The notes under the pieces are model-generated. The model made no database searches and had not been told where the DNA came from. It saw only the letters and a program-made list of their open reading frames with translations. A DNA stretch of 55,564 bases from Armatimonadota bacterium (GTDB lineage: Bacteria; Armatimonadota; Hebobacteria; CAIYQO01). The stretch's first letter is position 1, and the number at the start of each line of letters is the position of its first letter. The translations under genes and the position numbers were made by a program. Location of the stretch: positions 1 to 55,564 of the forward strand of contig JBBQQW010000001.1 of the NCBI GenBank assembly GCA_038215455.1, in the 5' to 3' direction. This document shows, in pieces, positions 13,001-44,840 of the stretch.

Positions 13001-13455
13001 ATATCGAAGAAGCCTATGAGGCACATGAGATAGAGCAGGGCGAGGAGAATATGCGCCTGCTGGAGCGGCTGGTGATCCTGCGTGTGGTGGACTCCAAGTG
13101 GATGCGCCACCTGGATGCAATGGACTTCCTCCGCGACGGCATTGGCCTCCGTGGCTATGAACAGACTGATCCGTTGGTGGCCTATAGCAAAGAATCGGCG
13201 GCGATGTGGAGCGAGTTGATGGCGGAAATCCAGGAGGAGATCGGCCACAGTATCCTGCGCCTGCGCTTGATCACTGCGGAAGAGCAAAGCCAGCAACAGG
13301 CGGCACGCGCCAAGCAAGTCTCCGCCAACCGCAGCGATGAGGAAGCCGCTGCACTGAAAGGTGGCGACCGCGTTGCCCATTCAGGTGTCGGCAGGAATGA
13401 CCCGTGTCCGTGTGGTAGTGGCAAGAAATTCAAACAATGCTGCCTGAACAAATAA
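10006..13455 (+). CDS. secA: preprotein translocase ATPase SecA (oversized, 1149 aa)
   Basis: Contains MKTGEGKTL (Walker A), VDEVDNILVDEA (DEAD-like box), TNMAGRGVDI, RIDNQLRGRSGRQGDPG and the C-terminal zinc SEC-C motif CPCGSGKKFKQCC. Extra segments are described in the findings. Confidence 0.97.
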   Translation: MAFLASLFDHTKRDVDRSWKTVASISALRPKMIALSDDELRAKTDEFRRRLAEGAVLDDLMVEAFAVVREAAWRVLGRRQYRFWVERSGLKNAVGTSALDEILVSEGEKANTENELKSSGKKFTVERFMEPFDVQLIGGIMLHRGMIAEMKTGEGKTLVAAAPLYLNALAGKGSHLVTVNDFLVRYQGTVMGELYSFLGMTTAITQSSKGDGQLPSYVYDPSYNQPDGIPGLPLRPVSRHDSYYADILYTTNNEIGFDYLRDNIAMEMRQLAQKELNFAIVDEVDNILVDEACTPLILSGPGEKPSELYVTVDRVIRELKNEVDYIIDEKGKNASLTEDGMARVERTLGVENIADPENLELFQHVTSAVRAHGCYSLDKDYIVKEGEVIIVDEFTGRLMYGRRFSEGLHQAIEAKEGVKVERESMTIATITFQNFFRLYAKLSGMTGTAKTEEQEFIKIYGLPVAVIPTNRPVSRKDHPDTVYKSEEAKLRGIIGEILQCESRHQPVLVGTRSVEFSERVSERLKADLLQSFALASIMHQQIVGMRKLDEKQRMEFAAILKLRMVDTKKEREHLQKTLEKLYGYQNPNSIRLVQPEEIRQIEMRLERAEGLDNEIIALAEKVKGTADLSANDARRIGEIICYQRLELVQNDRMGKLMVVCGLPAKATDPENVKRLAEIIDLDTAHDQLAELLARGVPHNILNAKYHEKEAHIVAQAGRPGAVTIATNMAGRGVDIMLGGNPSEMIDDIIDEWELNRDEVTEEEKDKALREARKRCLRDREIVVAQGGLAIVGTERHESRRIDNQLRGRSGRQGDPGSSRFFVSMQDELMRLFGPERIAFLYNNWDESESIAIGLISKQIETAQKKVEGHNFEQREQTLKYDDVMNKHRTVIYEQRRQVLEGENMRATAIGALEAGVQKRVLEFAPESLPTTEWQTDKLGHALMELCPELPLFYAPVEMRQGPSVPALETLHRARITQLYYDGLKKHKRQDELMEEIMGHIEEAYEAHEIEQGEENMRLLERLVILRVVDSKWMRHLDAMDFLRDGIGLRGYEQTDPLVAYSKESAAMWSELMAEIQEEIGHSILRLRLITAEEQSQQQAARAKQVSANRSDEEAAALKGGDRVAHSGVGRNDPCPCGSGKKFKQCCLNK

Positions 13456-25999: not shown

Positions 26000-28360
26000 A
26001 TGAGAGCACTATACTTGCTGCTAATTACACTATTGTTGGCGACGATCGTCATGGCAGTACCACCGACTGATAATGCGGTCGAGAGTAACTACAGTGGTGT
26101 GGAAGGATACCCGCAATGGACAAATGCAGTAAACTGGGCAAATGTCATTGATATGTCCACCTTCGCCAAGGGGAAAACGAATTTCGAGAAATTCGAGAAT
26201 GCGCGCGATGAAGTAGCGGTGAAGGGTGGGGGCGTACTCTACTACCCCGCCGGTATCTATGATTTCTCTGAAGGCCCGTTCTCCGGCCCCAATGGACGTG
26301 GCCTGATGCTGCGCTCCGGCGTGGTGATCCGTGGTGCTGCCCCGGTAGGAAAAGTCGACTCGTACAATGGCACTCTCGACCTGCCCACCAAATTCGTCTT
26401 CGGCTTTGACAAGCATGACGATGTCGCGCTGGATACCGGCACACGGGCGCGCTTCCTGCTCCGTGGTGGCATGAAAGCAGGATCCTTTAACGATGACCTG
26501 GTCGTAAGCATTGCAACAGCCGGGAATAAGATCGGCACCGAAGCAATAGGCTTCATGGCTAATAACCCGGAGTTAAAGCTGACCGGAACTGCTGAAACGA
26601 AAGAGATGCTTGCAGAGAAGAATGCGGATGGCGTTGCAGTACCTGTTACGGTTATTGAAGTAAAACTACAACTGCCCAAAGGCGCGAATAACCTGGAAGC
26701 GAATGTTACCTGTACCATTACTCTTAAAAACACTGCGGATGGGTACGCTGGTGACTATACAGGTAAACTAGATGGGAAAGATATCAAGGGAACAGCTGAG
26801 GGTAAGATCAGCGCCATCAAGGCAGAGACCCCGAAAGACTGGAATATCATCGGCCTGTGCCCGGAAAAAGATGGACGAATTAAGGACGTGAATAACGTCG
26901 GCATCGTCAATGTCAGCCTGGAAGGCGCGACGGTGTACTTCGGCCCAGACGTAAACTGGGGCGCGACCTGGCGCACTGCCGGATCATGGAAAAGCAACTA
27001 CATCAAAGACAGTTGGGCAGATCGAGTCCCCGACGGCACCCACCCGACTGATGCCTTCAATGGCGGCGGTAAGGAGCTGATAGGCTCGGGAACCGGCAGG
27101 CTGGTGGTCGGCTGCTACTTCAAGGATGCTGCGGTGATGAATAACAGCATGACCTGCGGGGTTGCTGGTTTCAGTGCCTCACCAGAACATGCCAAGGGAT
27201 TCGGCGTTGATGGCTTCTATATGGCGAAGTTCCCCGGACGCGTCTCCGTATATGGGAAAAACATACTGGTTGCCGCCAATGTACTCTCTAAATCAGAAGG
27301 TCGTAATTTTGTCTACGCACAGACCACTACCCGCAATGAATCGCGCAAAGGTACCTTCGCATATTTAGGCCTGCGCAAGAGTCGTGTACTCTTTGATTAC
27401 AACAAAACCTGCGGCATTGATATCAATAAAGAGATGCTCGGGCTGACAAAGGCAGAGGCCACCAGTGAAGGCTCTGCCGGATTCTTCGCCGAGAACGTAG
27501 TCGTCCGCGATAACTACGTCTACAATAACGGGCATAAGGGATTCAATATCTCCGGTAAATGGCTGACGATTCAGCATAACCGCAACCAGCGTGATTTCCT
27601 GGATGCCGGTAAGGACAGCTACGGCATCTACGGCTGGCGCTTGACGCTGGATGGCTTCACAGAAGCAAACGGCGGTGGCTCGGGGACTATCTCGGACAAT
27701 CTGTCCCGCGCCTTTGACCTCGGCGGGCAGAACGTCTGGATCGATAAGAACTACTACATCAATACCGGCTCCAACCCCGGCAATGACGGCGAAGGAATCC
27801 TTTGCCAGGCACACGGTGGCACCAATATGCTCTCCTGGGCGATGACGCGCAACGAGCATGAGAAGGGCCGTGGGCAGAATAGCTATATGGGTGGCTGGGA
27901 TGTCGATATCAAAGGCTTGCTTGCGGCCTGGAACAAAGACCCGTCGGGCGCGGTCGGCGAGACGAACGTGAGCAAACGTGCGATCATTGATTGTGCGGTG
28001 GTGGAAAATATCGAACGCGACCCGAAGAGCTGGAAAAAGCCCGAGATGCTGACCGTAACACCATTAGAATCACCCAAGGCACCGGTAGACGTGAAAGTAG
28101 CAGCCATTGAAGGTGCTGGGAATAAAATTAGCTGGACGGATGCCAGCGACAATGAGATCGGTTTCCGCGTGGATCGCACGCTGGATGGGGGAGCGACCTG
28201 GACACCCATCGCCTATCGCCCGCCACATATCGAGGGGACACCAGAGAACCCGCAGGAGTGGATGGACTACATGGCTCCCGCTGGAAAAGCATCTGCCTAC
28301 CGCGTTGTTGCCTGCGATGGCAAAGATAGCGATGCCGGTGCCAGTGCGCTGGTTAAATAA
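26000..28360 (+). CDS. secreted pectate-lyase-3/beta-helix protein with C-terminal FN3-like domain
   Basis: Signal peptide MRALYLLLITLLLATIVMA. FENARDEVAVKGGGVLYYPAGIYDF is a Pectate_lyase_3-type opening. Later beta-helix rungs appear (NVVVRDNYVYNNGHKGFNISG). The C-terminal part PVDVKVAAIEGAGNKISWTDASDNEIGFRVDRTLDGGATWTPIA is FN3-like. Confidence 0.6.
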   Translation: MRALYLLLITLLLATIVMAVPPTDNAVESNYSGVEGYPQWTNAVNWANVIDMSTFAKGKTNFEKFENARDEVAVKGGGVLYYPAGIYDFSEGPFSGPNGRGLMLRSGVVIRGAAPVGKVDSYNGTLDLPTKFVFGFDKHDDVALDTGTRARFLLRGGMKAGSFNDDLVVSIATAGNKIGTEAIGFMANNPELKLTGTAETKEMLAEKNADGVAVPVTVIEVKLQLPKGANNLEANVTCTITLKNTADGYAGDYTGKLDGKDIKGTAEGKISAIKAETPKDWNIIGLCPEKDGRIKDVNNVGIVNVSLEGATVYFGPDVNWGATWRTAGSWKSNYIKDSWADRVPDGTHPTDAFNGGGKELIGSGTGRLVVGCYFKDAAVMNNSMTCGVAGFSASPEHAKGFGVDGFYMAKFPGRVSVYGKNILVAANVLSKSEGRNFVYAQTTTRNESRKGTFAYLGLRKSRVLFDYNKTCGIDINKEMLGLTKAEATSEGSAGFFAENVVVRDNYVYNNGHKGFNISGKWLTIQHNRNQRDFLDAGKDSYGIYGWRLTLDGFTEANGGGSGTISDNLSRAFDLGGQNVWIDKNYYINTGSNPGNDGEGILCQAHGGTNMLSWAMTRNEHEKGRGQNSYMGGWDVDIKGLLAAWNKDPSGAVGETNVSKRAIIDCAVVENIERDPKSWKKPEMLTVTPLESPKAPVDVKVAAIEGAGNKISWTDASDNEIGFRVDRTLDGGATWTPIAYRPPHIEGTPENPQEWMDYMAPAGKASAYRVVACDGKDSDAGASALVK

Positions 28361-30252: not shown

Positions 30253-30284
30253 TTGAGAAGGTGCGGGATGTAAAGGAGTTTGCT

Positions 30285-31448
30285 ATGAGGAACCTATCAC
30301 TATTATTCATTGCACTGCTGGCTATAGCAAGTACGGCATGGGCGAATGATACAAGCGTAGTTGGCATCGGTGGTACTGTGAATCGCATGGGCGGTGAGGA
30401 TACCAACATTCGCATGGAGCAGGAGTGGGTGAATATTGACGTTAACGAGAAGAACTACACCGTAACTGCCACTTTTAAGTTCGTTAATGATTCTGACGCC
30501 GCGCAAACCGTCGAGATGGGCTTCCCGGAAAATGGTGGTGGTGATGGAGGAAGTGGAGATACGCCCGGATTCATTTCCTTCACCAGTAAAGTCGATAATG
30601 TCGCAGTATTGGTGGAACGAAAACTCCCGCGCTCGAAAAACTTGGACGGTGAAGGGTATCAAGCTTACTGGGTGAAGAAAGTAACCTTTCAACCTCGGCA
30701 GACTCATTGGGTGCAAGTAGAATATCTATCTAACAAAGGATTGGTATCTGCGTATCCACGTAATTTTATCATTTACAATTTCACTGGTGGCAATTGGAAA
30801 GGACTGGTGTCTTCTTCTGAGTTACTGGTCACTTTCCATAATCCAGGCATGTGGCTGGTGATGAGTCATGGTGTGGATTTTAAACAGAAGGAAAACCGAC
30901 TCTATCGTAAATGGGAGAACTGGCAAGCTGAATACGTGTTTAATGTTGATTTTGCACCGACAAAGCCGGACATACTAAATCGAACTTCCCGAAGTTACAG
31001 CGAAGATAAGCAATATAATTATGTTGTGAAGAATCCTGGAAATAGCGGACACGTCGAACAGAGGCCCGATGGATTATTACTCAATAACGTGGCATTTGTG
31101 GAACTAGACGATCTGGTTAGGGAATTAGGGGAAAAAAAAGATGACCAACCAATAAAGAAGGTAGTACAGGATTGGGATGGGAAAACGAATATTGTGACGC
31201 TGCGTGTTGACGATATTGAACTTACCTTTCAACCCGATAGCGACATCATGAAGAGAAAATCTCCGATAAATGTTAATGAGGTTCTGTCTGTTAAGTATAT
31301 AAAGCTACTGGGCAAAGTATTCCTGCTTGATGATGGATACAAAAAAGGGGAAAAGCTGATGTATGTACCAGTTGCGGATGTGGTGAAAGCACTGAATGGG
31401 AAATTTGAAGAGCATCTGGAAAACCTGACAATCGATTATTCTTTTTAA
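30285..31448 (+). CDS. secreted DUF4424-like + stalk-domain protein (paralogue 2)
   Basis: ATG 30285 (AAAGGAG 7 nt upstream) gives the signal peptide MRNLSLLFIALLAIASTAWA|ND. It shares NDTSVVGIGGTV..M......NIRMEQEWVNIDV....YTVTATFKFVND......VEMGFPE, ENRLYRKWENW and GEKLMYVPVADVVKAL with its neighbours. Confidence 0.65.
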   Translation: MRNLSLLFIALLAIASTAWANDTSVVGIGGTVNRMGGEDTNIRMEQEWVNIDVNEKNYTVTATFKFVNDSDAAQTVEMGFPENGGGDGGSGDTPGFISFTSKVDNVAVLVERKLPRSKNLDGEGYQAYWVKKVTFQPRQTHWVQVEYLSNKGLVSAYPRNFIIYNFTGGNWKGLVSSSELLVTFHNPGMWLVMSHGVDFKQKENRLYRKWENWQAEYVFNVDFAPTKPDILNRTSRSYSEDKQYNYVVKNPGNSGHVEQRPDGLLLNNVAFVELDDLVRELGEKKDDQPIKKVVQDWDGKTNIVTLRVDDIELTFQPDSDIMKRKSPINVNEVLSVKYIKLLGKVFLLDDGYKKGEKLMYVPVADVVKALNGKFEEHLENLTIDYSF

Positions 31449-31479
31449 TGTTGGCGATGAATGAATAAACGGAGGGAAG

Positions 31480-32718
31480 ATGATGAGATATATAGTGGTT
31501 ATCGCTGCTGCCGTGCTTTTTGCTCTATCAGCTACAGCGGAATTTGAAGTCGTAAAAATCGTCAATGGTACAGTAGATTATGCGAAGAGCGATGCTGTGA
31601 GATGCAATCATATCTGGATTGATGTCAACATAAAACCGACTGGGTATGAATGCGTGGAGACTATTGAGTTAGAGAATATTTCCGATGATTCCGCAACAAT
31701 CAAAGTGGGGAATAATCTTGGATATATTTCCAGCGATTACCTATATGTTGAGAGTGCATATTTAGTAGATAATGCAAAAGTTAAGGCCATTCCCATGCCT
31801 TACGGGGAATTACCTTATGTTCAAAATATGGACATCATAGATCTGAAGTTTACTCCCAAGGGGATAAAGTACCTGAAATCTGAATACACCATAAAAAACA
31901 ATACGATTCCCGGATATCCGATACATGATCTATATTTTTCAATGAATACTCGCGGATGGCAGAATGATTACGTGAATCTCGGGGGAATGCCTGACTATAT
32001 GAAACCTGCATCAGTGCCGATGCTACCGGCCTGTGAGGCTCTGGTGACAATAAATCTCCCTGGGACTACAATGATACAAACGACAATATTGGAAATGAAA
32101 CATGTTGAAAACCGACTCTATTATAAGTGGCCACAGTCAGACAAAAACTTGAATTTTTACCTGGATATTACCTATCAACCAGTAATCGCCGGGGAATTGC
32201 GGACAACTCTGATAAACATGAGAGAAGAAAAGCAAAGAATTTCCAACCCCAGTAATTTTCCAGTAGTGCGTGTACATAACATTGAAATAATCGAGAACCC
32301 CGGCAAAACGGTCCCGTCCTATGCGCCGGAGACTCTTCTCCGTGATGACGTAGTCTATACGAAGATTGAAGATCTGGCGGACAATATGCTGGCGTTGAAT
32401 CGCAAAGAGAAGGTAGCGTTGAAAATTAATGAGGCTATGACAAGTGCGGTATTGATGGCCGGTAATGATGTCTTTATCTTCAGTACGGGCAGCAAGGTTT
32501 CAAACAAAGATGGCGTTGAAATCACGCAGGCAGGTGCGCCGTTCTTACTTGACGATCCGTTCAATGTGGGCGAAAAAGTACTTTACGTCCCACTTTCTTC
32601 ATTGGTAGATTTTTATAAAGGGAAGCTGACGCTGACAAAAGAACGGGCGGAGGTGAGTTATTCATTACCGGACTGGGAACCCAAAGAAAAAGTGAAACTG
32701 AATGAGAAGATGCACTAG
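31480..32718 (+). CDS. secreted DUF4424-like + stalk-domain protein (paralogue 3, most divergent)
   Basis: Signal peptide MMRYIVVIAAAVLFALSATA|EF. It keeps MKHVENRLYYKW (P1: MKHVENRLYKKW) and the C-terminal GEKVLYVPLSSLVDFYKG...AEVSYSL stalk-type motif. Confidence 0.6.
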   Translation: MMRYIVVIAAAVLFALSATAEFEVVKIVNGTVDYAKSDAVRCNHIWIDVNIKPTGYECVETIELENISDDSATIKVGNNLGYISSDYLYVESAYLVDNAKVKAIPMPYGELPYVQNMDIIDLKFTPKGIKYLKSEYTIKNNTIPGYPIHDLYFSMNTRGWQNDYVNLGGMPDYMKPASVPMLPACEALVTINLPGTTMIQTTILEMKHVENRLYYKWPQSDKNLNFYLDITYQPVIAGELRTTLINMREEKQRISNPSNFPVVRVHNIEIIENPGKTVPSYAPETLLRDDVVYTKIEDLADNMLALNRKEKVALKINEAMTSAVLMAGNDVFIFSTGSKVSNKDGVEITQAGAPFLLDDPFNVGEKVLYVPLSSLVDFYKGKLTLTKERAEVSYSLPDWEPKEKVKLNEKMH

Positions 32719-35079: not shown

Positions 35080-38000
35080 TTACGCCAGACGAAGGAGCAT
35101 GCGCAGCAACACCATCGGTGGGATATATGCCAGCAGGTATATCCACAGCCACCCGGGATCATAGTCCGGCTTGCCAAAGCGTGCAAACGGTGTCCAGAAC
35201 ATCTGCTTTGTCTTTGCTTTGTCGTAGACTATTTTTACTGATTTCACTGGAGAAGATGCTCCTCCAGTGATCTCGGTAAGTGCAGGTGGATATTTATCAC
35301 CGAGAACAGCGCTGATTTTTATCGGTGTTTTCTCCTTGGTTGTCAGTGTAAGATCAAATTTACCAGCGGTGGCGGTATCCATGTCTGCAGGTCGGATGCG
35401 CCAGGATATTGTCTGTGGTGTAACCCCCGCCTTCAGGTAACCCTGCAAGTCGGCCAGCATCTCTGCGCGTGCCTTTTTGGCAGCTGCCTGCACGTCCCAG
35501 GGCAGGTTGCCCATCTCGGATGGTGCCGCCCAGCGTGCCTGCAATTTCTCCAGCGTCTCTTTTATCTGCGGGATCGACTGCTCGCGTGGGGTGGTCTCAT
35601 CCAGCCGCACTGTGCCAGGAATGTCGAGAGACACCGGCTCATGCCATGTAGCATCTACTGTGGCAAGCACCATGAAGGACGTCCCGGGTGCAGGACTCCA
35701 TGCAGCCGGGTCAAGACGTTCTGGCAACCAGGAGAAGGTCATCACCATCGGGCCGAGCACCAGCGCCAGCGGGACGAATGCCGCCATGGATATCTGCCCC
35801 TGTACCGGGCGCGCCAGCTGCAGCAGTATCTTGTTCCGCGGGGAGCCGGTCGGGAAGGTCGCGGCCTCTTTGGTGAGGAGCGCAGCCCGGCGTTTCGCCT
35901 CCCAGATGCGCTTGTTATTCGTCAGCACGCTCTGCCCCACCATGGTGATGATGGCAAAGGCACAGGCAATGATGGCAACGGTTATCGGCTTGCCGAATAT
36001 GTTAACCAGCGGCCAGAGCAGAGAATCCAGTATTGCATAGCTGGGATGCTTCAAATATTGTGGCGGGAGTAGGAATACCCCGGCCAGGTAGATGGCCCAG
36101 AAAGCGATGCAGAGATTCATCAGCATCCCGGCGCGGCGGTCGGCATCACCGGGTACCGGCGGTACCAGCTCGCGTGCCACATGGGTGTCATTCTCGTCAA
36201 CGGCGGCAACATCGCAGATTTCCTGCGCGCCGCGGTAGAGTTTGCCGTGTCGGCCGTCTACCGTGATCGTCTCGCCTTCCTGCAGCAGTTCCGTCGCTCC
36301 GGCCAGCACAACTGCCGGGATGCCCATTTCGCGTGCAACCACCGCACCGTGCGAGAGCGTGCCCCCACGCTCCAGCACCAGGCCGGCGGCGTTGACGAAT
36401 AACGGAGTCCAGGAGGGATCGGTGGACGGGCAGACGAGGATGTAGCCGTTCTCCATCGCGCCCGCTTTCTCCGGCGAGAGAATAATACGCGCTGGCCCGG
36501 AAGCCGTTCCGCTGGAGATAGGGAACACCGTGATGCAATCGCCCGAAGCATGGATTATGGGTTCGCCGATACGCTCCAGTTCCGCTTCATCAATGAAGTT
36601 CGGGAGTTGGATGCGGTCTTCCGCGGCGCGCAGCATCTTGCGTTTATCTATAACCGGAAGTGGCGGATATCCAGTGAGTACTGCATGAGTGAACTCTTCA
36701 CGCGTGAGTAAGAAGACATCATCGCCGATGCCCAGGCGTCGCCCGGCTTCCAATGCCACATCGCGCAGCAGGTCGTACCCGAGCATCAGATAGTCTTTGC
36801 CGTCCTCACGGAAGTTGATATAGCGCCCAGCACGTTGCAGAATATCTTCCAGCCGGTCGGCATCCTTCGGGCTAAGCTTGCTTTGCAGTTCGTCGATACG
36901 TTTCACAGCTCGTGCGTGACGTTCCTCGCTGATAAGCTGCGGTGACCTGCCACCCGCCATGCCCTGTGCCATTTTGCGCGCTTCTTCCGGGCGTTCACGC
37001 CAGCGTGGTGAGGAGAGATCGAACTCTGCTGGGCCACGGTAGCCGTGATCTTTGATCCATTTTTCCAGCGTGCGCGTCCCGGTTGCCACTTCGTACAGTT
37101 CTGCCCCGGAGCGCAATGTGGAGTCCATTTTTGAAGAGACGACAATCTCATTAGAAAGTTCATACGGATCATCATCCCAGAAGTGTTCATTGAGAAAGCT
37201 GTGCAATTCTGCCAGAATCATGCCATCAATAAGACTGGGAAGCATAGAACTGGGGCCAAAGTCGTCCAGCACCTGCGTCTCGCGCTCCTGCAGTGCTGTG
37301 AGCAGTTCTTCATCGGATAAGATGGTGAGATCGCGATGCTTCTCTGCTTTGCACCAGGCAGCAAATGCCGGGATTATTTCGTTGGACAACCGTTTGTCGA
37401 AGTCCTCTGACATCTCCGCCAGCATACGATTGGCTGCTGCCAGCTTCCCGTTTACATTCATGCCCCCCATCATTCCGCCGATGGGGACGGTGGGAGGGGC
37501 TTGCCCGGCTTCGGGATTATTGCGGATCTCCTCTGGATCATAGGCGAAGGGGAAATCCTGGAAAAACATCTCCGGTGCGACCTTCAAGTCCATGTAGGGG
37601 CGGCCGGCGATGAGCGTGAGAAAACCTTCCGCGCAGGCGATAGGAGCAGGTACAAAACCTGCCTGCCGGTACATATTCCCGTAGCCACCTTCACCGGACA
37701 TGAAACGGCGGATAAAGCTCCAGGTGAGCGGGGTGGGGTGGGGCAGGGTTTCGGCGATGTTATGCGTCACCCACGGGCCACGTTCGTTCTCCAGTGCCGC
37801 TTTCAATTCTGTGCGTGTATTATGCAGGCACTCCTCATAGGCAGCCGCGTCACCCAGTGTGGTGATATTACGCGTCTGCAGGATGAAAAGCTCATCGTTG
37901 TGGAAGGCCCATTCGATATCCTGCGGGACGCGGAAATGCGTCGCCGCATGCCTGCCCAGTTCCCAGAGCTTCAGCACTTGCGCAGCATTAAGAGAACGCT

Positions 38001-38685
38001 TGTTGCGCATGTTGGCCGGGGTGGCACATTCCTTATGCGAGCCAGGCGCTATCCAGGTCGCTTTGTCGGAGATCTTCGCCTCAAGTACGCGGCCATCAAT
38101 GCCGGAGATACGCAACACGTCTGGTTGCACGTTGCCCGAGACAACCGATTCGCCCAGCCCCCAGCTCGCTTCGATGAGCATCTCATCGAGTGCGCCGGTG
38201 CGTGCATTGGCCGTGAAGAGCACGCCCGCTACATCGGCGGGGACGAGTATCTGTACTACTACCGCCATTGCCACCACATCAATATCAATGCCATGCTCAT
38301 GCAGGTAGCTACGCGTGCGTGGGCTGTCCAGGCTGCTCCAGCATTTCTGCACCGCATTCAGCACATCATCGACACCATTGATGTCCAGGAAGGTCTCATA
38401 TTGCCCCGCCATACTGGCATCGGCCATATCTTCCGCAGTGGCGCTGGAACGCACCGCCACCGTTGGCGAGCCGATCTGCTGGTAGCAGGTGCGGATTGCA
38501 TCGGCCAATTCGGCGGGCATGCCACCTTTGGCATGAGCGTAACGATAGGCATCGGTAGTGATGACAAAGCCACCGGGCGCGGGGAATCCTGCGCGCAACA
38601 GACGCCCGAGGTTGATTGCTTTTCCGCCGACGCGTGCAGCATCGCGCGCATCAGCGAGGTTTTGGATAAAATCGTTAGTATTCAT
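35080..38685 (-). CDS. PEP-utilising phosphotransferase (PpsA / rifampin-phosphotransferase-like: ATP-grasp + central helical region + His swivel domain) fused to a C-terminal polytopic membrane module
   Basis: The PPDK_N-type ATP-grasp covers residues 1 to about 280 (GGKAINLGRLLRAGFPAPGGFVITT, VAVRSSATAEDM, PQDIEWA). The mobile domain covers about 715-820, with ERGGTLSHGAVVAREMGIPAVV (His779, codon 36351-36349). There is no PEP/pyruvate TIM barrel. Residues about 852-1201 contain four hydrophobic helices (MLMNLCIAFWAIYLAGVFLL; ITVAIIACAFAIITMVGQSVL; ISMAAFVPLALVLGPMVMTFSWL; WLWIYLLAYIPPMVLLRMLL) and a loop of about 190 aa between helices 3 and 4. Confidence 0.75.
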   Translation of the reverse strand: MNTNDFIQNLADARDAARVGGKAINLGRLLRAGFPAPGGFVITTDAYRYAHAKGGMPAELADAIRTCYQQIGSPTVAVRSSATAEDMADASMAGQYETFLDINGVDDVLNAVQKCWSSLDSPRTRSYLHEHGIDIDVVAMAVVVQILVPADVAGVLFTANARTGALDEMLIEASWGLGESVVSGNVQPDVLRISGIDGRVLEAKISDKATWIAPGSHKECATPANMRNKRSLNAAQVLKLWELGRHAATHFRVPQDIEWAFHNDELFILQTRNITTLGDAAAYEECLHNTRTELKAALENERGPWVTHNIAETLPHPTPLTWSFIRRFMSGEGGYGNMYRQAGFVPAPIACAEGFLTLIAGRPYMDLKVAPEMFFQDFPFAYDPEEIRNNPEAGQAPPTVPIGGMMGGMNVNGKLAAANRMLAEMSEDFDKRLSNEIIPAFAAWCKAEKHRDLTILSDEELLTALQERETQVLDDFGPSSMLPSLIDGMILAELHSFLNEHFWDDDPYELSNEIVVSSKMDSTLRSGAELYEVATGTRTLEKWIKDHGYRGPAEFDLSSPRWRERPEEARKMAQGMAGGRSPQLISEERHARAVKRIDELQSKLSPKDADRLEDILQRAGRYINFREDGKDYLMLGYDLLRDVALEAGRRLGIGDDVFLLTREEFTHAVLTGYPPLPVIDKRKMLRAAEDRIQLPNFIDEAELERIGEPIIHASGDCITVFPISSGTASGPARIILSPEKAGAMENGYILVCPSTDPSWTPLFVNAAGLVLERGGTLSHGAVVAREMGIPAVVLAGATELLQEGETITVDGRHGKLYRGAQEICDVAAVDENDTHVARELVPPVPGDADRRAGMLMNLCIAFWAIYLAGVFLLPPQYLKHPSYAILDSLLWPLVNIFGKPITVAIIACAFAIITMVGQSVLTNNKRIWEAKRRAALLTKEAATFPTGSPRNKILLQLARPVQGQISMAAFVPLALVLGPMVMTFSWLPERLDPAAWSPAPGTSFMVLATVDATWHEPVSLDIPGTVRLDETTPREQSIPQIKETLEKLQARWAAPSEMGNLPWDVQAAAKKARAEMLADLQGYLKAGVTPQTISWRIRPADMDTATAGKFDLTLTTKEKTPIKISAVLGDKYPPALTEITGGASSPVKSVKIVYDKAKTKQMFWTPFARFGKPDYDPGWLWIYLLAYIPPMVLLRMLLRLA

Positions 38686-40370
38686 TCAGCTGACGTCCCA
38701 ACCAGGCAGATCAGGCCCCCCGTCTCACTTCCCACGAATACTCTACCGCCCGCCACTGTGGGCGAGGAGAAGGACATACCTTGTCCAGGAGCATCTTCTG
38801 AATTCAATGCAATAGTCTCCAGTTTCTTACCCTCGCCATCCAGTACCACCAGGTAGCCTCCGGAAGAAACTGCGTAGATGGTCTTACCGGTAAACGCCGC
38901 TGCGGCCATCACTGGTTCGCTCTCATGGGCGGTAGTTGATTTGATAATGCTGCCATCAGCGATATTCATCAATGTTATCTTACCGGTGCGTCCGGTGCAT
39001 ACGGCTACATTACCCACCACCGCCACCGCACCAAGTACCGCATCGGGGAAGTCTTTAGACCAGACGACTTTGCCGTCTGCGCGATTGATAGCTAAAACCT
39101 TGCCGGCAGGATTCTTCTTATCGGCGTAGACAAAGTCACCGTTGCCAACACCGGTTATTATTATGTCACCGACGACGGTGATTGCTCCGGTAGCCGGATA
39201 TGTGGTATCCGCGGACCAGAGGATATTACCAGCGCCTTCACCTTCCAGCTTAATCGCCACCACTTTATTTCCATTGAAACCACTGCCGATGTAGACAATA
39301 CCATCGACGATGGCGGGAGAGCTTTCCGGGTCGTTAACCGGATGTCGCCACAGTACGGTACCATCGCTAATTTGCACGGCGATAACTTCACCGGGGGCGG
39401 AAATAGGTTTATGGTCTGGACCTTCAATAGCCCCGCACCCCACAACCGCGATGTCTCCCCAGATAGCCGGGGAGCTTTCAATATGCAGTGTGGAGGGTGC
39501 CTGCCAGCGTATTGCCCCCGTGACTGCATCCATACAAACTAATGAGCAATTCATATCAGGATGTAATCCCAGGCCAATGAGTAGATTCGCCCCGTCAGCT
39601 GTAACTGCCGGAGAAGAGAATATCCCCGGGAAAGCTTTCCCATCATTACCTGCACTTGTTTTCCATATCAATGTACCACTTTCTGCATCCAGGCAGATGA
39701 CGGAGCCGTAGTAGGCACCGCCTTTTAACACAGAGACGGAACTATATAGCTTATTGCCGACGAGCAATGGTGATGATAATGACGTGCTGTTATCTTCGGA
39801 ATAACTCCAGAATTTCGCTAACCCACGCGGGCCGGGGCTACCATCCCATGCTGTACGAGCAACACCCATGCCTAAGATGTATGGGCTGGCTGCGCCTGTA
39901 GCAGCACCATTTCCATCGGTTATGACATTGCCAGTCGTTGGATCAATAATTGTGCCATTGAAACTGGTAAGTCCGCCGGGATTCAATAATGAGGTGGTTG
40001 CACTGCCAGTGCCGGGCATACCGGCTATTGGGCCTTTGCCCCCCGTTTTGTCGCGACGCAGGATATCCAGGGCGACGGCGGCCCAATCAGTTTTACTGGT
40101 GGGTTCCCCCGCCACTGTGGTTCCGGTAGTTGCGGCGACTGCCTGGTGTGGCCCGAATGCCCAACTTCCGCCAAACCATAATCCTGCCCCGATGGCAATA
40201 ACCAGGAATGGCATCCAAGGTTTGCGTTTGAAAGCTGCCACTAATTCCTTGGGCTTCATGATAATCGCTGCTACGCTAGCGAAGCCTGCAATTATGGCCG
40301 GGAAGAGGGCAGCACCGGCGTTGACAAAGATCGGCACCACGGCCGGAGAAGTCTCTGGGATAGGCAGCAT
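38682..40370 (-). CDS. membrane-anchored PQQ-like (BamB-type) beta-propeller repeat protein
   Basis: Two N-terminal TM helices (AGAALFPAIIAGFASVAAII; WMPFLVIAIGAGLWFGGSWAF). These are followed by repeated blades of the type G.VY.GS..G.l.A.d..tG...W (VICLDAESGTLIWK, GKVLAINRADGKVVWS, GKITLMNIADGSIIKS, GRVFVGSETGGLICL). The stop overlaps the next gene's ATG (ATGA, 38682-38685). Confidence 0.75.
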   Translation of the reverse strand: MLPIPETSPAVVPIFVNAGAALFPAIIAGFASVAAIIMKPKELVAAFKRKPWMPFLVIAIGAGLWFGGSWAFGPHQAVAATTGTTVAGEPTSKTDWAAVALDILRRDKTGGKGPIAGMPGTGSATTSLLNPGGLTSFNGTIIDPTTGNVITDGNGAATGAASPYILGMGVARTAWDGSPGPRGLAKFWSYSEDNSTSLSSPLLVGNKLYSSVSVLKGGAYYGSVICLDAESGTLIWKTSAGNDGKAFPGIFSSPAVTADGANLLIGLGLHPDMNCSLVCMDAVTGAIRWQAPSTLHIESSPAIWGDIAVVGCGAIEGPDHKPISAPGEVIAVQISDGTVLWRHPVNDPESSPAIVDGIVYIGSGFNGNKVVAIKLEGEGAGNILWSADTTYPATGAITVVGDIIITGVGNGDFVYADKKNPAGKVLAINRADGKVVWSKDFPDAVLGAVAVVGNVAVCTGRTGKITLMNIADGSIIKSTTAHESEPVMAAAAFTGKTIYAVSSGGYLVVLDGEGKKLETIALNSEDAPGQGMSFSSPTVAGGRVFVGSETGGLICLVGTSAE

Positions 40371-40552
40371 GTAAAATCCTCGCTATTTGTGTTAGAATTG
40401 TGTTTAATTATCGGGAATACCGGCGTTATCGTCAAGTTTTTCCGATCTCAAATTATTTGACAAAAAATCTTACCGTTTGTTCCACTTTCTGAAGAGAACA
40501 GATGTATATTTTTGGTGTCAAACTACCTAGTTTAGTGAATATGGAGATTATG

Positions 40553-42379
40553 ATGAAGATCAAACAGATTGTCATGCTTGTGTGTTGCAGCATTTCCGCT
40601 CAGATGTTGCTGGCCGTGGTTCCTCTGAACCCGATCGGGGCGGGGATATACCCCGAGGTCATTCTGCAGGCGCAGGTCACTGCGACGCCGGCAGGTGGCC
40701 AGCTGGCATTGGCAGAGATTGCCACCCTCCAGGGCGATGCACCACTGATTCTCAAAACGGTTACGGTTTCAGCTGCTGCAGCTCCCAAACTAGCGGCGGA
40801 ATGTGCAGCAGGCCCGCAGATGGCGCTCATCTTCTGGGGTGAGACCGGGCAAGCGGATAAGAATATCGCCGGTGTACTGCACGTCGGAGCATCGTGGCTG
40901 ACATTTTCCAAAAATGATGATGGCGTGACTCTCGACGACCAGCAACTGGATATCAACCTTACCTGGGGTGGTATCACCGATTCGCTGCAGGCCACTGTCG
41001 ACTACATCGCAACGCACCCAGCGGCGGATGTACATACCCGCTGGGGTGGTGAACTGAAAATCGGCGAATTCGCTGGTGTCGTATCTTCGGCGCAGGCAGT
41101 TGACCTGTTGGGTGACGGACGGCCGTGTCTATACCTGGCCTCACTTGCAGGAGACCGGGCTTTCCGCATAAAGGATGATGGTACTGCTGAAGAGCTTACT
41201 GCTCAATTGGGGATAACGGCGAAATCGAAGCTGGTGACCTTTGGCACCTTCGATAATTCGGGTAAAATGGGAATAGCCAGCTGGTCAGCAGGTAAGTTGT
41301 ATATCTACGCACAAGCAGATGGCAAATTCGCAACAGCGCCGCTGGAAGTTGCGCAGGATGATTGCATTGGTATCAGCTCGATACCCAGTGGTATAGCGGG
41401 ACAAGCTGCCATACTGGTGTCACGTTCCGAGGCAAAAGCGCCAGTGATTGTCTCTCCGGGTAAAGACGCTGTTATACTGGCCACAGCAAATAGTTGGGTA
41501 AAAAGCGAAGCAACCCGCTGTGCAGTTGCCGATTTCAATGGTGACGGAATCATTGATATCGCACAACCGTTCAGTAAAGGTGTGTTATTCTACCAGGGGA
41601 ATAAAGATGGCACATTCCAGGCTGGCGCGAATAAGAGCGTTGTGTCGTTACCGAAAGACATGTTGGCATTGAATGTTGCTGATATCGATGCCGATGGCCA
41701 GTTGGACTTCATCGTAACCGCGCGTACCGGGACGATCATTCTGCGCAACGCCGGCAACGGTAACTTCTCCCCGGTACTACGCGCCCTCGGTGGTATGCGC
41801 GACGCTACACGCTCCTCGCTGGAATGTTCACCGATTGATTACGACAACGACGGGCGCATTGACCTGTTCATACGCTACCAGGGATTGATGCCGCAGGCGC
41901 TGATTAACTGCGGTTTTTCAAAATTCATCCAGTCAGGTAATCTGAGTCTCGCAGGTGTTGAGACCAAAGATGCCGACGGGAAAGTATTGGCCCCAGCCTG
42001 GCAAATGGCCTGTGCTGATGATATGAAAGATGAGCAGGGTGCCCTGGCGGTGGGCGACTTTAACGGTGATAACGTAGAAGATATTGTGCTGGTAGGCCAG
42101 CCGGGGAATAAGATCTGGTTGCTGACGGCAGATAACGCTGCGGGTAAATTGGCGCTCAATGTTACGCTACCGGCAACATCTGCAGGGCAGCAAGTGGTAG
42201 TAGCGTATACTGGCAAACGTTGCCTGGGTGCCAGATTGATAGAGCCAGGCAAGCCGGCATTTTTCGGCATAGCCAATAAGGGGCCGATTACACTGCAATG
42301 GACTACCACGGATGGAATAGCACACAGCAAAAAAGTAGTAGTTTTGAAGTCAACTCGTGTAGAATTAGCTGCTGAATAG
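40553..42379 (+). CDS. secreted FG-GAP/VCBS repeat (integrin-alpha-like propeller) protein
   Basis: Signal peptide MKIKQIVMLVCCSISAQMLLA. Ca-binding FG-GAP loops: ADFNGDGIIDI, DIDADGQLDFIV, DYDNDGRIDLFI, GDFNGDNVEDIVLVG. The track start is 40502. I prefer ATG 40553, 6 nt after GGAG. Confidence 0.75.
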   Translation: MKIKQIVMLVCCSISAQMLLAVVPLNPIGAGIYPEVILQAQVTATPAGGQLALAEIATLQGDAPLILKTVTVSAAAAPKLAAECAAGPQMALIFWGETGQADKNIAGVLHVGASWLTFSKNDDGVTLDDQQLDINLTWGGITDSLQATVDYIATHPAADVHTRWGGELKIGEFAGVVSSAQAVDLLGDGRPCLYLASLAGDRAFRIKDDGTAEELTAQLGITAKSKLVTFGTFDNSGKMGIASWSAGKLYIYAQADGKFATAPLEVAQDDCIGISSIPSGIAGQAAILVSRSEAKAPVIVSPGKDAVILATANSWVKSEATRCAVADFNGDGIIDIAQPFSKGVLFYQGNKDGTFQAGANKSVVSLPKDMLALNVADIDADGQLDFIVTARTGTIILRNAGNGNFSPVLRALGGMRDATRSSLECSPIDYDNDGRIDLFIRYQGLMPQALINCGFSKFIQSGNLSLAGVETKDADGKVLAPAWQMACADDMKDEQGALAVGDFNGDNVEDIVLVGQPGNKIWLLTADNAAGKLALNVTLPATSAGQQVVVAYTGKRCLGARLIEPGKPAFFGIANKGPITLQWTTTDGIAHSKKVVVLKSTRVELAAE

Positions 42380-42400
42380 TAGAAATAGATGGAGAAAATG

Positions 42401-44692
42401 ATGCGTTTGTCACTCTTAGTGATAGTAATTACCGTATTCGTGTGCGGCATGATATCGACCGCTGCCGACTGGCCGATGACGCGGGGTGGCCTGGCGCGCA
42501 CCGGCGTGGCGCAGGGGACAGCTGAACCGCAACGGCCGATATTGAATTGGCGCTGGCGTGATGGCGAGGAGTCGTTTTTCTCCTCTCCCGCGATTGCAAA
42601 TGGCAAAGTATATGTGACTTCTGGGACAATCGGTGCCCTGGCGGAGAGCGGGGCGATATATTGCTTTGATGCGGCCAGCGGCAAGATGCTCTGGAAGTGC
42701 TCCCCTCCCGGCTACCGCGCCACCTTCTCCTCGCCGGTGATCTCCGGGAAATATCTGGTGGTGGGGGAAGGCCTGCACGTATGCCGTGATGCCCGGCTGG
42801 TCTGCCTGGACATCAGTGGTGAGCAGCCGAAAATCCTCTGGACATACCGCGCCAACAGCCACATCGAATGTACGCCAGTGATCGATAATGGTCGCGTCTA
42901 TGTAGGTGCAGGCGATGATGGTTACTACTGCCTGAATCTGGAGCCAGACGCTGCCGGGCAACCGGTGGTGAATTGGCATGCCCCCGGTGCAAATTATAAG
43001 GATGCTGAAACCTCGCTGGCAGTGGCAGGAGGTAAGGTATATGCCGGCTTAGGCATCGGTGGCCGCGAACTCTGCGTTTTGGATGCTATTACCGGCGTCG
43101 AGCAGCAGCGGGTTAAGATGCCATATCCAGTGTTCAGCCCGGCGACTATTGTGGATGGTAAATTGTATCTCGGCATGGGCAATGGCGACTATATCAACGC
43201 CAACCCCGGTGGCGAAGTGCGTTGTATCGACATTGCCACCATGGCTACTGATTGGACCTATCCGTTGACACAGACGGTACTGGGCGCAGTGGTGAGTGTG
43301 GGCGACAAATTGTACTTCGGATCCCGTGATGGCTGGCTCTATTGCGTGGATAAGGCAGGAAAATTACTGGGGAAATACGATACCCATGGGCCAATCGTCA
43401 CCTCACCGGCGGTGAGCGAACATTTCGTCTATGTGATGAGTGACACCGGCTTCCTCACCGCGATCAATCGAGCGGATTTGACCTTCAGCTGGGAGTTCAT
43501 GGTCGGCAGCAAGCCGCTCTTCATCAGCTCGCCTTCCGTGGGCAATGGGCAGGTATTCATCGGCTCGCAGCAGGATGGCCTGCTGGCTATTGGCGCGGCG
43601 GATAAGCCAGCAATAGCCACCTGGAATGGCTACCTGGGCCAGGCAGGACGTACGGGGAATCTGGATGATTCGCCCCTCGCGGATGCCGGTGCTTTCCAGT
43701 GGAACTACCCGGCAGAGATGATGGGGGAGAATGCGGCGAAACTGGTAGTAGCCCCTGCCGCCGTCGCCGGGAAGAATATCATTATTCCCATGACCGGGAA
43801 ACAATCCGGCGTAGTATGCCTGCCCGCAGATGCATCGGCGCAAGAGACGCCAAAGATTCGCTGGGCATATACCACCGCTAACCCGGTATCGCTCTCACCG
43901 GTGATAATAGGTGAGAATGTTTTTGTCGTCGACGGCATACCCGGCATGGCAGCACGCACGCTGACTTGCCTGAATGTTGCGGATGGGAAGAAGCGTTGGA
44001 CCGTGCCGGTTGCTGACGGTACCGGCGTCTTCTCCGCTACCGAGAATGAGATAATCATACAGGATATTGCCGGAAAGGTCAGTTGCATTGAGCTGGATGG
44101 CAAAGCGCGCTGGGCGATTAATGCCGGTGGGGTAATTGATGGCTTCTGCATAGCGGGAGACACAGTCTATTTCGCGACCGCGAATGAATTGGTAGCGGTG
44201 AATCGCCTGACAGGCAAAGATGCATTCAGCGTACCGGTAAATGCATTGGCAGCTCCTGTTGTAGCTAATGGTGTCATCTACCTGGCCACCAGCAAAGGAA
44301 TTGAAGCACGCGATGCCAAAACCGGTGAATTAACACCCAATGGGCTGTTACCCGGCGGTGCCGCTACTGGTGCATTCGCCGTCACGCGCAATGAGATCGT
44401 CTACGTCAATGGCGCAGGTGAGCTGGTTATTATCGAGCGCACCAGCGGTAAGATCATCAACAGTATCGCGAAAGCACTGCCGATTCCCCCATTAGTGAGC
44501 CGCAACATGGTGCTATATCTGACGAAAGACAGCATCATGCGCCTGGATTTGGCACGCCCCACAGTAAAGCCGACGCAATGGCTGGACACCAGCTGGCTGG
44601 GAGAAGCCACAACCCCGATGGTACTATCCCGTGGCAACGTCTACCTGGGCATGGCAGGGTGGGGGCTGGTACGGGCTGGGCGCGGGCAGTAG
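42401..44692 (+). CDS. secreted tandem PQQ-like beta-propeller repeat protein
   Basis: Signal peptide MRLSLLVIVITVFVCGMISTAA, then DWPMTRGGLARTG, the usual opening of PQQ-like/BamB-type propellers. Roughly 14-16 blade-like repeats follow (GKVYVTS, GRVYVGAGDDGYYCL, GKLYLGMGNG, DKLYFGSRDGWLYCVD...). The track start is 42389; ATG 42401 lies 6 nt after GGAG. Confidence 0.75.
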   Translation: MRLSLLVIVITVFVCGMISTAADWPMTRGGLARTGVAQGTAEPQRPILNWRWRDGEESFFSSPAIANGKVYVTSGTIGALAESGAIYCFDAASGKMLWKCSPPGYRATFSSPVISGKYLVVGEGLHVCRDARLVCLDISGEQPKILWTYRANSHIECTPVIDNGRVYVGAGDDGYYCLNLEPDAAGQPVVNWHAPGANYKDAETSLAVAGGKVYAGLGIGGRELCVLDAITGVEQQRVKMPYPVFSPATIVDGKLYLGMGNGDYINANPGGEVRCIDIATMATDWTYPLTQTVLGAVVSVGDKLYFGSRDGWLYCVDKAGKLLGKYDTHGPIVTSPAVSEHFVYVMSDTGFLTAINRADLTFSWEFMVGSKPLFISSPSVGNGQVFIGSQQDGLLAIGAADKPAIATWNGYLGQAGRTGNLDDSPLADAGAFQWNYPAEMMGENAAKLVVAPAAVAGKNIIIPMTGKQSGVVCLPADASAQETPKIRWAYTTANPVSLSPVIIGENVFVVDGIPGMAARTLTCLNVADGKKRWTVPVADGTGVFSATENEIIIQDIAGKVSCIELDGKARWAINAGGVIDGFCIAGDTVYFATANELVAVNRLTGKDAFSVPVNALAAPVVANGVIYLATSKGIEARDAKTGELTPNGLLPGGAATGAFAVTRNEIVYVNGAGELVIIERTSGKIINSIAKALPIPPLVSRNMVLYLTKDSIMRLDLARPTVKPTQWLDTSWLGEATTPMVLSRGNVYLGMAGWGLVRAGRGQ

Positions 44693-44762: not shown

Positions 44763-44840
<78 letters not shown>

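Follow-up and report, generated by a model that had tools for sequence, protein, structure and literature searches.

A rifampin phosphotransferase-type dikinase fused to a DUF106/Ylp1-like membrane module in a protein family of PVC bacteria

A reverse-strand open reading frame (ORF) at positions 35,080 to 38,685 of contig JBBQQW010000001.1 from an Armatimonadota bacterium (GCA_038215455.1), within the 55,564-nt stretch analyzed here (the window), joins a phosphohistidine swivel enzyme to four hydrophobic helices and an acidic domain in a single protein of 1201 amino acids (aa). Sequence comparisons place it in a large family conserved across the PVC group, comprising Planctomycetota, Verrucomicrobiota, Lentisphaerota, and relatives. 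The locus raises two questions: what job a phosphohistidine relay would have at an insertase- or scramblase-type groove, and how an archaeal-type Oxa1 module entered PVC bacteria and diversified there.

The enzyme part and its chemistry

The whole gene and the domains of its enzyme part are as follows:
35080..38685, minus strand: whole gene, dikinase plus DUF106-like membrane module (intact ORF, ATG start, 1201 aa)
37840..38685, minus strand: ATP-grasp nucleotide-binding domain, residues 1-282 (PF01326 PPDK_N at 54-282, E 7.4e-77)
36454..37839, minus strand: central Rph-type domain, putatively acceptor-binding, residues 283-744 (phmmer against PDB; precomputed Pfam label PF27448 'Rph_4th')
36796..36810, minus strand: R626-E627-D-G-K630, putative second-phosphotransfer site (aligns to R666-E667-x-x-K670 of Listeria rifampin phosphotransferase, Rph-Lm)
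36244..36453, minus strand: phosphohistidine swivel domain, residues 745-814 (PF00391 PEP-utilizers, E 1.6e-24)
36349..36351, minus strand: predicted catalytic His779, codon CAC (codon position and invariant column)

The original prediction, made from the sequence alone, had placed a PPDK_N-type ATP-grasp over residues 1 to about 280 of the 1201-aa ORF, a phosphoenolpyruvate (PEP)-utiliser domain around 715-820, and the swivel histidine at nt 36351-36349. All three positions hold, with PF01326 at 54-282, PF00391 at 745-814, and a CAC codon exactly where His779 was expected. Its expectation of a Rph/YvkC-type architecture lacking the PEP/pyruvate TIM barrel is likewise borne out: PF02896 gives no Pfam match at E <=1 in the 1201-aa protein, and the nearest solved relatives in a search of PDB sequences are the Listeria rifampin phosphotransferase structures 5fbs and 5hv1 (E 1e-70). 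In an alignment of 45 family members, used here for the columns of the enzyme and of the last helix, K22 and R79 of the ATP-grasp are invariant and T98 is nearly so; in Rph-Lm, K22, R117, and T136 serve the ATP site (PMC4844700). The swivel motif GGTLSHGAVVAREMGIP begins at residue 774, and its columns G774, G775, L777, S778, H779, G780, and A781 are invariant. The same is true of R626, E627, and K630; in Rph-Lm, the second transfer, from phosphohistidine to rifampin, requires R666 and E667, which share a network with K670, and the R666A and E667A substitutions abolish this transfer alone (PMC4844700).

The central domain is only partly related to that of Rph. A phmmer search of PDB with residues 284-745 matches 5fbs (E 8e-8) over query positions 248-459 only, so that the C-terminal half of the domain is homologous to Rph-Lm 563-789; in the same search, no similarity to the rifampin cleft was detected for the N-terminal half. 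Because K22, R626, E627, K630, and His779 are invariant while the half corresponding to the rifampin cleft is without detectable similarity, the enzyme part is probably catalytically complete as judged by its residues, with two-transfer chemistry retained and a different acceptor. Like Rph (Rph-Lm; 5FBS/5FBT/5FBU), it is built from an ATP-grasp, a central acceptor domain, and a C-terminal swivel His, and it keeps the catalytic His, the Lys22 ATP-site residue, and the equivalents of R666/E667/K670; from this order and these residues, the expected chemistry would be ATP + acceptor + H2O -> AMP + Pi + phospho-acceptor. Sequence comparison thereby identifies the soluble part as a rifampin-phosphotransferase-type 'acceptor, water dikinase', with a predicted cytoplasmic location.

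The protein resembles PEP synthase and PPDK (TIGR01418, TIGR01828) in its PPDK_N ATP-grasp and PEP-utiliser swivel domain, but it differs from them in lacking the PF02896 barrel and in having its His domain C-terminal to the acceptor domain. It scores 304.6 against a cut-off of 739.75 for TIGR01418 and 319.9 against 598 for NF005057. The top NCBIfam models are 'PRK06241 PEP synthase' subfamilies, Rph, PigC, and RedH, all with scores well under their cut-offs. It is very improbable that the protein is a genuine rifamycin-inactivating phosphotransferase, that is, an antibiotic resistance enzyme with an incidental membrane anchor. Such a role would fit the Rph-Lm structures at the top of the PDB search and the appearance of 'rifampicin phosphotransferase' among the names given by annotation pipelines, but the score against the NF041857 equivalog model is 328.3 bits, with a cut-off of 999 (for NF000283, 222.9 against 1700), and nothing aligns across the rifampin-binding cleft at Rph-Lm ~327-560 (Q336, Y351, L478, F479), phmmer covering Rph 563-789 only. 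Unlike Rph, moreover, the fusion protein has a ~360-aa membrane/periplasmic module, a fixed operon partner, and a PVC-group range by source names, and its conserved operon with periplasmic proteins is unparalleled in rph genes. Several hundred database entries are misleadingly named 'PEP synthase', 'pyruvate, water dikinase', or 'rifampicin phosphotransferase', names that the assignment corrects.

The DUF106/Ylp1-like membrane module

Where the original prediction had the reading frame continue for about 350 residues beyond the enzyme, some 360 extra residues are indeed present; the boundary is different, since the soluble part ends at ~815-850 and is followed by a linker of 31-60 aa (median 41 across the family). 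The C-terminal part, comprising four hydrophobic helices and a ~190-aa acidic domain, divides into these features, in which TM stands for transmembrane helix:
36124..36243, minus strand: linker, residues 815-854, with the juxtamembrane motif PPxPG..[ED]R at its end (conservation)
36055..36123, minus strand: TM0, predicted extra helix, residues 855-877 (hydropathy, AlphaFold2 helix 7-32 of the module, charge bias)
35725..36054, minus strand: DUF106/Ylp1-like segment, residues 878-987 (profile against MJ0480, hhalign, reverse search, conservation)
35155..35724, minus strand: predicted extracytoplasmic β-sandwich into which a helical hairpin is inserted, residues 988-1177 (AlphaFold2 pLDDT 90.6, pTM 0.82, modelled alone)
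35080..35154, minus strand: last helix, residues 1178-1201, plus stop codon; putative equivalent of DUF106 TM3/H5 (weak MJ0480 match, conservation)

Within the linker motif, P842 is near-invariant and P843 invariant. The segment at 878-987 contains, in order, an outer amphipathic helix, TM1 (with Q918 invariant), a basic coil predicted to be cytoplasmic, and TM2; the coil carries the motif LTDNRRLxEAKRRA, and the TM2 motif LLGPMVMxFxW is nearly invariant. In the last helix W1179, Y1183, and Y1187 are invariant.

Homology of this segment to DUF106 proteins was found by three comparisons. A hidden Markov model (HMM) of the module, searched against all PDB sequences, matches MJ0480, the DUF106 'YidC-like protein 1' (5c8j), at E 3.4e-4 with an 8-sequence profile and at E 7.8e-8 with a 38-sequence profile. 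The alignment spans MJ0480 residues 9-118, which cover the outer helix, TM1, the coiled coil, and TM2, and a weak colinear piece pairs MJ0480 TM3 (170-197, GWLGWYIL...LRKIL) with the last helix of the module. MJ0480 is the one biologically meaningful target; a designed coiled coil (E 2.8e-4), the sole other PDB match under E 0.01, gauges the compositional noise in the profile search. Of the relatives of MJ0480, none of EMC3, GET1, TMCO1, or bacterial YidC appeared in this search of PDB sequences. Comparison by hhalign of the module with four archaeal PF01956 proteins gave 90.3% probability and E 1.5e-6 over 100 columns, the target profile being shallow (a search with MJ0480 9-118 gave these four PF01956 proteins only). 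In the reverse direction, an HMM built from the four proteins was run on 557 control ORFs from all loci; its top 45 matches consisted of the module family only, and the window protein was matched at E 3.1e-5 over residues 883-939. Independently, the JGI pipeline had given some orthologues the name 'phosphohistidine swiveling domain-containing protein/uncharacterized membrane protein (DUF106 family)'. A resemblance that the original prediction called weak is thus considerably firmer. The profile comparisons show a module made up of TM0 and a three-helix core homologous to Ylp1/MJ0480 (DUF106, Oxa1 superfamily), and structural modelling shows a novel, predicted periplasmic β-sandwich of ~190 aa inserted between the second and third helices of this core.

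Bacteria use YidC where archaea and eukaryotes have DUF106/Ylp1-type insertases. DUF106 has been described as an archaeal and eukaryotic family (PMC5868721; PMC8675477), a range that this bacterial relative extends. Like Ylp1/MJ0480 (PF01956, 5C8J; relatives EMC3, TMCO1, and GET1), the fusion protein has a colinear N-terminal outer helix, TM1, basic cytosolic coil, TM2, and TM3, a similar motif at the cytosolic end of TM1 (LLTDNRRL.EAKRR in the fusion protein, LLVDQKRVAELKK in MJ0480), and a GW..Y-type last helix. Unlike Ylp1/MJ0480 it is bacterial, possesses TM0 and the ~190-aa β-sandwich between TM2 and TM3, and carries a fused enzyme.

The topology of the module can be predicted from several kinds of evidence. 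Hydropathy analysis (Kyte-Doolittle, 19-residue window, peaks >1.3) gives C-terminal peaks at 855-877, 900-922, 965-987, and 1180-1200; two earlier peaks, at 130-162 and 342-362, fall within the ATP-grasp and central domains and are core strands rather than membrane helices. Net charge in 38 orthologues is +7.3 for the TM1-TM2 coil and -3.3 for the ~190-aa domain, and since the charge obeys the positive-inside rule across orthologues, the enzyme and the basic coil would be cytoplasmic and the large domain outside. AlphaFold2 models the whole module as helices and a β-sandwich (pLDDT 74.8). Hydropathy, charge bias, and AlphaFold2 thus agree on the four-helix module with an extracytoplasmic domain that had been proposed, and together they predict the N-out/C-in layout with a cytosolic coil that characterizes the Oxa1 superfamily (PMC5868721). 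The protein is accordingly taken to be an inner-membrane enzyme. TM0, which is weakly conserved and falls outside the MJ0480-aligned region, is in this model an adaptor that crosses from cytoplasm to outside and lets the DUF106 core begin N-out. Q918 in TM1 and Y1183/Y1187 in the last helix are conserved and lie at positions expected for the putative lipid-exposed hydrophilic groove. Strong conservation of the core helices, as opposed to the added TM0, disfavors a merely passive anchor.

Spread of the fusion and its propeller partner

A search for the same fused architecture in databases returned more than 120 full-length homologues, nearly all of 1190-1300 aa, with 46-54% identity and coverage of mostly 98-100%, and all of them carry PF01326, PF27448, and PF00391. 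A word-indexed search with the module alone had given 7 matches only, an impression of rarity corrected by the full-length search and by an exhaustive module-only profile search, which found 336 representative clusters, 132 of them at E <=1e-30. In every full-length match of the module profile, a protein of ~1100-1420 aa ends in the module; the architecture is unchanged in longer variants, and no other fusion partner for the module was seen among these matches. As read from the source names of matched sequences, the family occurs in Phycisphaerae/Tepidisphaerales, Pirellulales, Thermoguttaceae, Verrucomicrobiota, and Lentisphaerales. A scan of contigs with the generic motifs AVRSSATAE and E[RC]GGxLSHGA mostly detected soluble PpsA/Rph-like enzymes, the only orthologous locus being L004 from Lentisphaerales. 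The earlier suggestion that such a protein belongs to no described class stands insofar as the literature searched, the coverage of which was incomplete and in which absence is no proof, contained nothing on a bacterial DUF106-dikinase protein or on a characterized family with such an architecture; it falls short insofar as a large PVC family exists, some members of which JGI had already labelled.

The probability that the fusion is an artefact, in which a frameshift or assembly error joins a ~840-aa soluble enzyme to a separate membrane protein, is negligible. Enzyme and module form one ORF wherever the sequence suffices (69 metagenome loci and four others), and the ORF is continuous over query positions ~1-1200 in essentially every adequate locus, from many independent metagenomes and metagenome-assembled genomes. 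The linker and its PPxPG motif are conserved as well. Nothing was found in support of an artefact, broken genes being present only at L133 and L141, and conservation of the fusion across dozens of independent assemblies therefore excludes it; an indel that creates an artificial fusion was a possibility that the original prediction had proposed to check. In L133 the fusion gene is in three ORFs, and in L141 (5195-6931) residues ~811-1201 alone remain, behind a remnant of a propeller gene; each may be a pseudogene or an assembly error. Four database entries of 343-371 aa (P0199, P0139, P0156, and P0202) contain the module alone and begin with a Met immediately ahead of TM0; each could be a genuinely separate module, the product of a split gene, or the result of a start called inside the gene on a truncated contig.

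The gene has one constant partner, and other neighbours recur less often:
38682..40370, minus strand: partner gene, 562-aa PQQ_2/BamB-like β-propeller with two predicted N-terminal TM helices (Pfam PQQ_2 E 8.9e-31)
40257..40340, minus strand: first TM helix of the propeller, residues 11-38, VVPIFVNAGAALFPA... with Asn and Pro within (conservation)
40502..42379, plus strand: secreted FG-GAP/VCBS-repeat protein, divergent (PF13517 E 6.7e-23; signal-peptide-like N-terminus)
42389..44692, plus strand: second secreted PQQ_2 β-propeller, 767 aa (PF13360 E 7.5e-43; signal-peptide-like N-terminus), linked by position only
22 loci: secreted FG-GAP/VCBS proteins as recurrent neighbours
15 loci: secreted ~470-aa family with no Pfam or NCBIfam match (e.g., L124:10175-11587; L002 13716-15188)
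10 loci: pair of a ~316-aa protein with an N-terminal TM and Gly/Pro-rich low complexity and a ~640-aa HEAT-repeat protein
8 loci: ~1260-aa TPR protein with BamD/YfiO-like segments (PF13525 E 5.7e-19; e.g., L112:1906-5700, minus strand)

Conservation of the propeller neighbour, which the original prediction had proposed to check, was found in 43 of the 44 loci that include the enzyme N-terminus and at least 600 nt upstream. In these 43 a propeller orthologue lies upstream on the same strand and ends -13 to +62 nt from the enzyme start; in the window, the propeller stop overlaps the enzyme start as ATGA. Gene positions thus indicate that the two genes are translationally coupled, and they provide a concrete two-gene unit (propeller and dikinase-DUF106) for PVC envelope biology. 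Because the two N-terminal hydrophobic helices of the propeller protein are separated by a Lys/Arg-rich loop, which they flank, the propeller itself would be located outside. Mean column identity among 34 orthologues is 0.73 for TM1 of the propeller protein (VVPIFVNAGAALLPA...), 0.34 for its TM2, and 0.69 for the propeller. High conservation of TM1 relative to TM2 points to a specific intramembrane contact and suggests a specific intramembrane role for TM1, which possibly docks on the DUF106-like module. In archaea and eukaryotes, DUF106 proteins typically use the distal face of their last helix to pair with another TM protein (PMC8675477), which makes it plausible that the enzyme and propeller form one membrane complex.

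The pairing has an analogue, in analogy only, in the endoplasmic reticulum membrane complex (EMC), in which a DUF106-type subunit (EMC3) is accompanied by an extracytoplasmic PQQ-type β-propeller (EMC1). Unlike in that complex, no further EMC subunits are present, and the window propeller has no match to the EMC1 model, matching PQQ_2 and BamB-type models only. An EMC1 identity for the propeller was rejected: it appeared in one orthologue only (P0108), where PF25293 scored 25.4 bits against a cut-off of 34, beneath a much stronger PQQ_2 match. P0108 (1786 aa, on a 100-kb ENA contig) was also considered as a Rosetta-stone fusion of propeller and enzyme. Its junction reads like a frameshifted propeller C-terminus, probably an artefact of a kind that an overlapping ATGA junction such as that of the window makes easy, and its topology would be impossible, with a periplasmic propeller directly joined to a cytoplasmic ATP-grasp; on both grounds the fusion was rejected. 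P0108 still documents the adjacency of propeller and enzyme.

Among the recurrent neighbours, the ~470-aa secreted family is found in up to four tandem copies (L117), and examples of the pair with the HEAT-repeat protein are L093:11238-12185 with its next gene and L090:3870-5792. The ~1260-aa TPR protein adjoins the propeller gene, usually alongside an FG-GAP protein. A further neighbour family (c5) has no Pfam match. A set of arginine-rich ORFs (c7) that preceded the enzyme in five loci was discarded as an antisense artefact, tblastn showing the propeller gene there.

Proposed function and other features of the window

These features are best explained, though tentatively, by a dikinase that is tethered to the membrane, works in complex with the propeller, and phosphorylates an amphipathic acceptor from the membrane that the YidC-like groove presents to it. 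In this scheme the ATP-grasp would transfer the β-phosphate from ATP to His779, and the swivel domain would then carry it to a second site in the central domain, formed by R626/E627/K630. The swivel domain is tethered to the three-helix module via a ~40-residue linker and TM0. The acceptor may be a membrane amphiphile that carries a free hydroxyl (for example a lipid, an envelope precursor, or a compound linked to a polyprenyl chain), and its head group would gain the cytoplasmic site by way of the hydrophilic groove that the YidC-like module is predicted to open to the lipid. Once phosphorylated, the molecule could be released or scrambled toward the periplasmic leaflet, where it may be acted on by the propeller and the β-sandwich together with the neighbouring secreted FG-GAP proteins. 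An acceptor taken from the membrane is the most economical choice because the swivel domain is held within ~40 residues of the membrane and the acceptor site is intact. MprF, a lysyl-phosphatidylglycerol synthase fused to a flippase, may offer a functional analogy: there, too, a cytoplasmic enzyme that modifies an amphiphile is joined to a membrane domain that then handles it, although the two proteins have no sequence or fold relationship and their chemistry differs. Among relatives named in NCBIfam and dikinases described in the literature (Rph, PigC/RedH, GWD, Hpe, and MarK), the acceptors are small or hydrophobic molecules bearing a hydroxyl or carbonyl, or glucans. The ability to scramble lipids is reported to be common to insertase folds (PMC11047089) and could let the product reach the outer leaflet.

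Several results weigh against this explanation. The biochemical role known for DUF106 proteins is protein insertion rather than small-molecule handling. No lipid or polyprenol biosynthesis gene recurs among the neighbours, where repeat proteins (FG-GAP, TPR, HEAT) and unknowns are what recur. The proposed association with the propeller is deduced only from the order of the genes and the conservation of a TM helix. The module matches no Pfam family at E <=10; this includes the PF01956 model, which had been proposed for the C-terminal part and which also fails to match four JGI 'DUF106'-labelled orthologues at E <=1. Of the proposed AlphaFold and Foldseek check, the first half yielded modelled helices and a β-sandwich, and the second no significant PDB fold: Foldseek of the whole-module model against PDB found nothing significant and retrieved no insertase structure, and the best match of the periplasmic domain in PDB had E 0.01 and TM-score <=0.34, with no lipid-binding fold. 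The sub-significant matches are generic Ig-like β-sandwiches of GH2 enzymes, pilins, and axonemal proteins.

The same homology could be read differently, namely that the module is a working YidC-type insertase for certain clients (e.g., the N-out TM hairpin of the propeller, or envelope proteins), with the dikinase regulating or energizing it or phosphorylating a passing client. To our knowledge, a dikinase-driven insertase is without precedent, and we regard this possibility as unlikely. In its favor, DUF106/Ylp1, EMC3, GET1, and TMCO1 all serve in the biogenesis of membrane proteins (PMC5868721), and the basic coil (+7.3) is akin to the ribosome- or targeting-factor-binding coils of the Oxa1 superfamily. 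The short N-out tail and conserved TM1 of the propeller have the classic topology of a YidC-type substrate, and neighbouring genes encode secreted or envelope repeat proteins, among them the TPR protein with BamD/YfiO-like matches. However, Oxa1-superfamily insertases work without a covalently joined ATP-consuming enzyme, the conserved R-E-x-x-K acceptor site indicates a substrate in the central domain, as in Rph, and a canonical YidC is expected in the host bacteria.

A doubtful but possible alternative is an envelope-gated anchored kinase, in which the module is mainly a scaffold and the β-sandwich and propeller sense a signal and switch a dikinase that acts on a soluble or membrane-partitioning small molecule (a xenobiotic, an aromatic, or an antibiotic). 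Rph-family kinases of known function use small-molecule acceptors, and the divergent N-terminal half of the central domain implies an acceptor other than rifampin. Regulators are found nearby, with two-component regulator pairs in 4 loci and an HTH-cupin regulator beside the gene in the window, but they are not conserved as neighbours across loci, and neither is the downstream AMP-binding enzyme of the window. An anchor would need neither such high conservation of the DUF106 core nor a module coupled exclusively to the enzyme across several phyla, and ~50% identity across phyla with one fixed partner resembles a housekeeping envelope function, not a variable detoxification gene.

A stronger claim, one we consider improbable, is that phosphoryl transfer from ATP is mechanistically coupled to the movement of lipid or polypeptide through the YidC-like groove of a DUF106/EMC3-like, propeller-paired machine in PVC bacteria. 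If true, this would constitute a previously unknown mode of energy- or phosphorylation-coupled membrane translocation, the insertase superfamily would gain its first member with a fused enzyme, and the finding would be relevant to the debated archaeal/eukaryote-like traits of the PVC superphylum.

Elsewhere in the window, a SecA of 1149 aa (10006-13455, plus strand) has a DEAD-like match at residues 8-456 against a 290-position model, which therefore points to a large insertion in its motor domain. A 786-aa ORF at 26000-28360 (plus strand), with no Pfam match at E <=1e-5, lies between a GH42 β-galactosidase and a cyclophilin-domain protein. Two tandem secreted proteins of 395 and 412 aa at 30261-32718 (plus strand) match no Pfam family and are distant paralogues (22% identity, E 5e-22), and they occupy the lowest-GC stretch of the window (0.43, compared with ~0.54). 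The sole RNA gene in the window, encoding tRNA-Pro (GGG), is located at 44764-44840 on the minus strand, directly after the second propeller gene.

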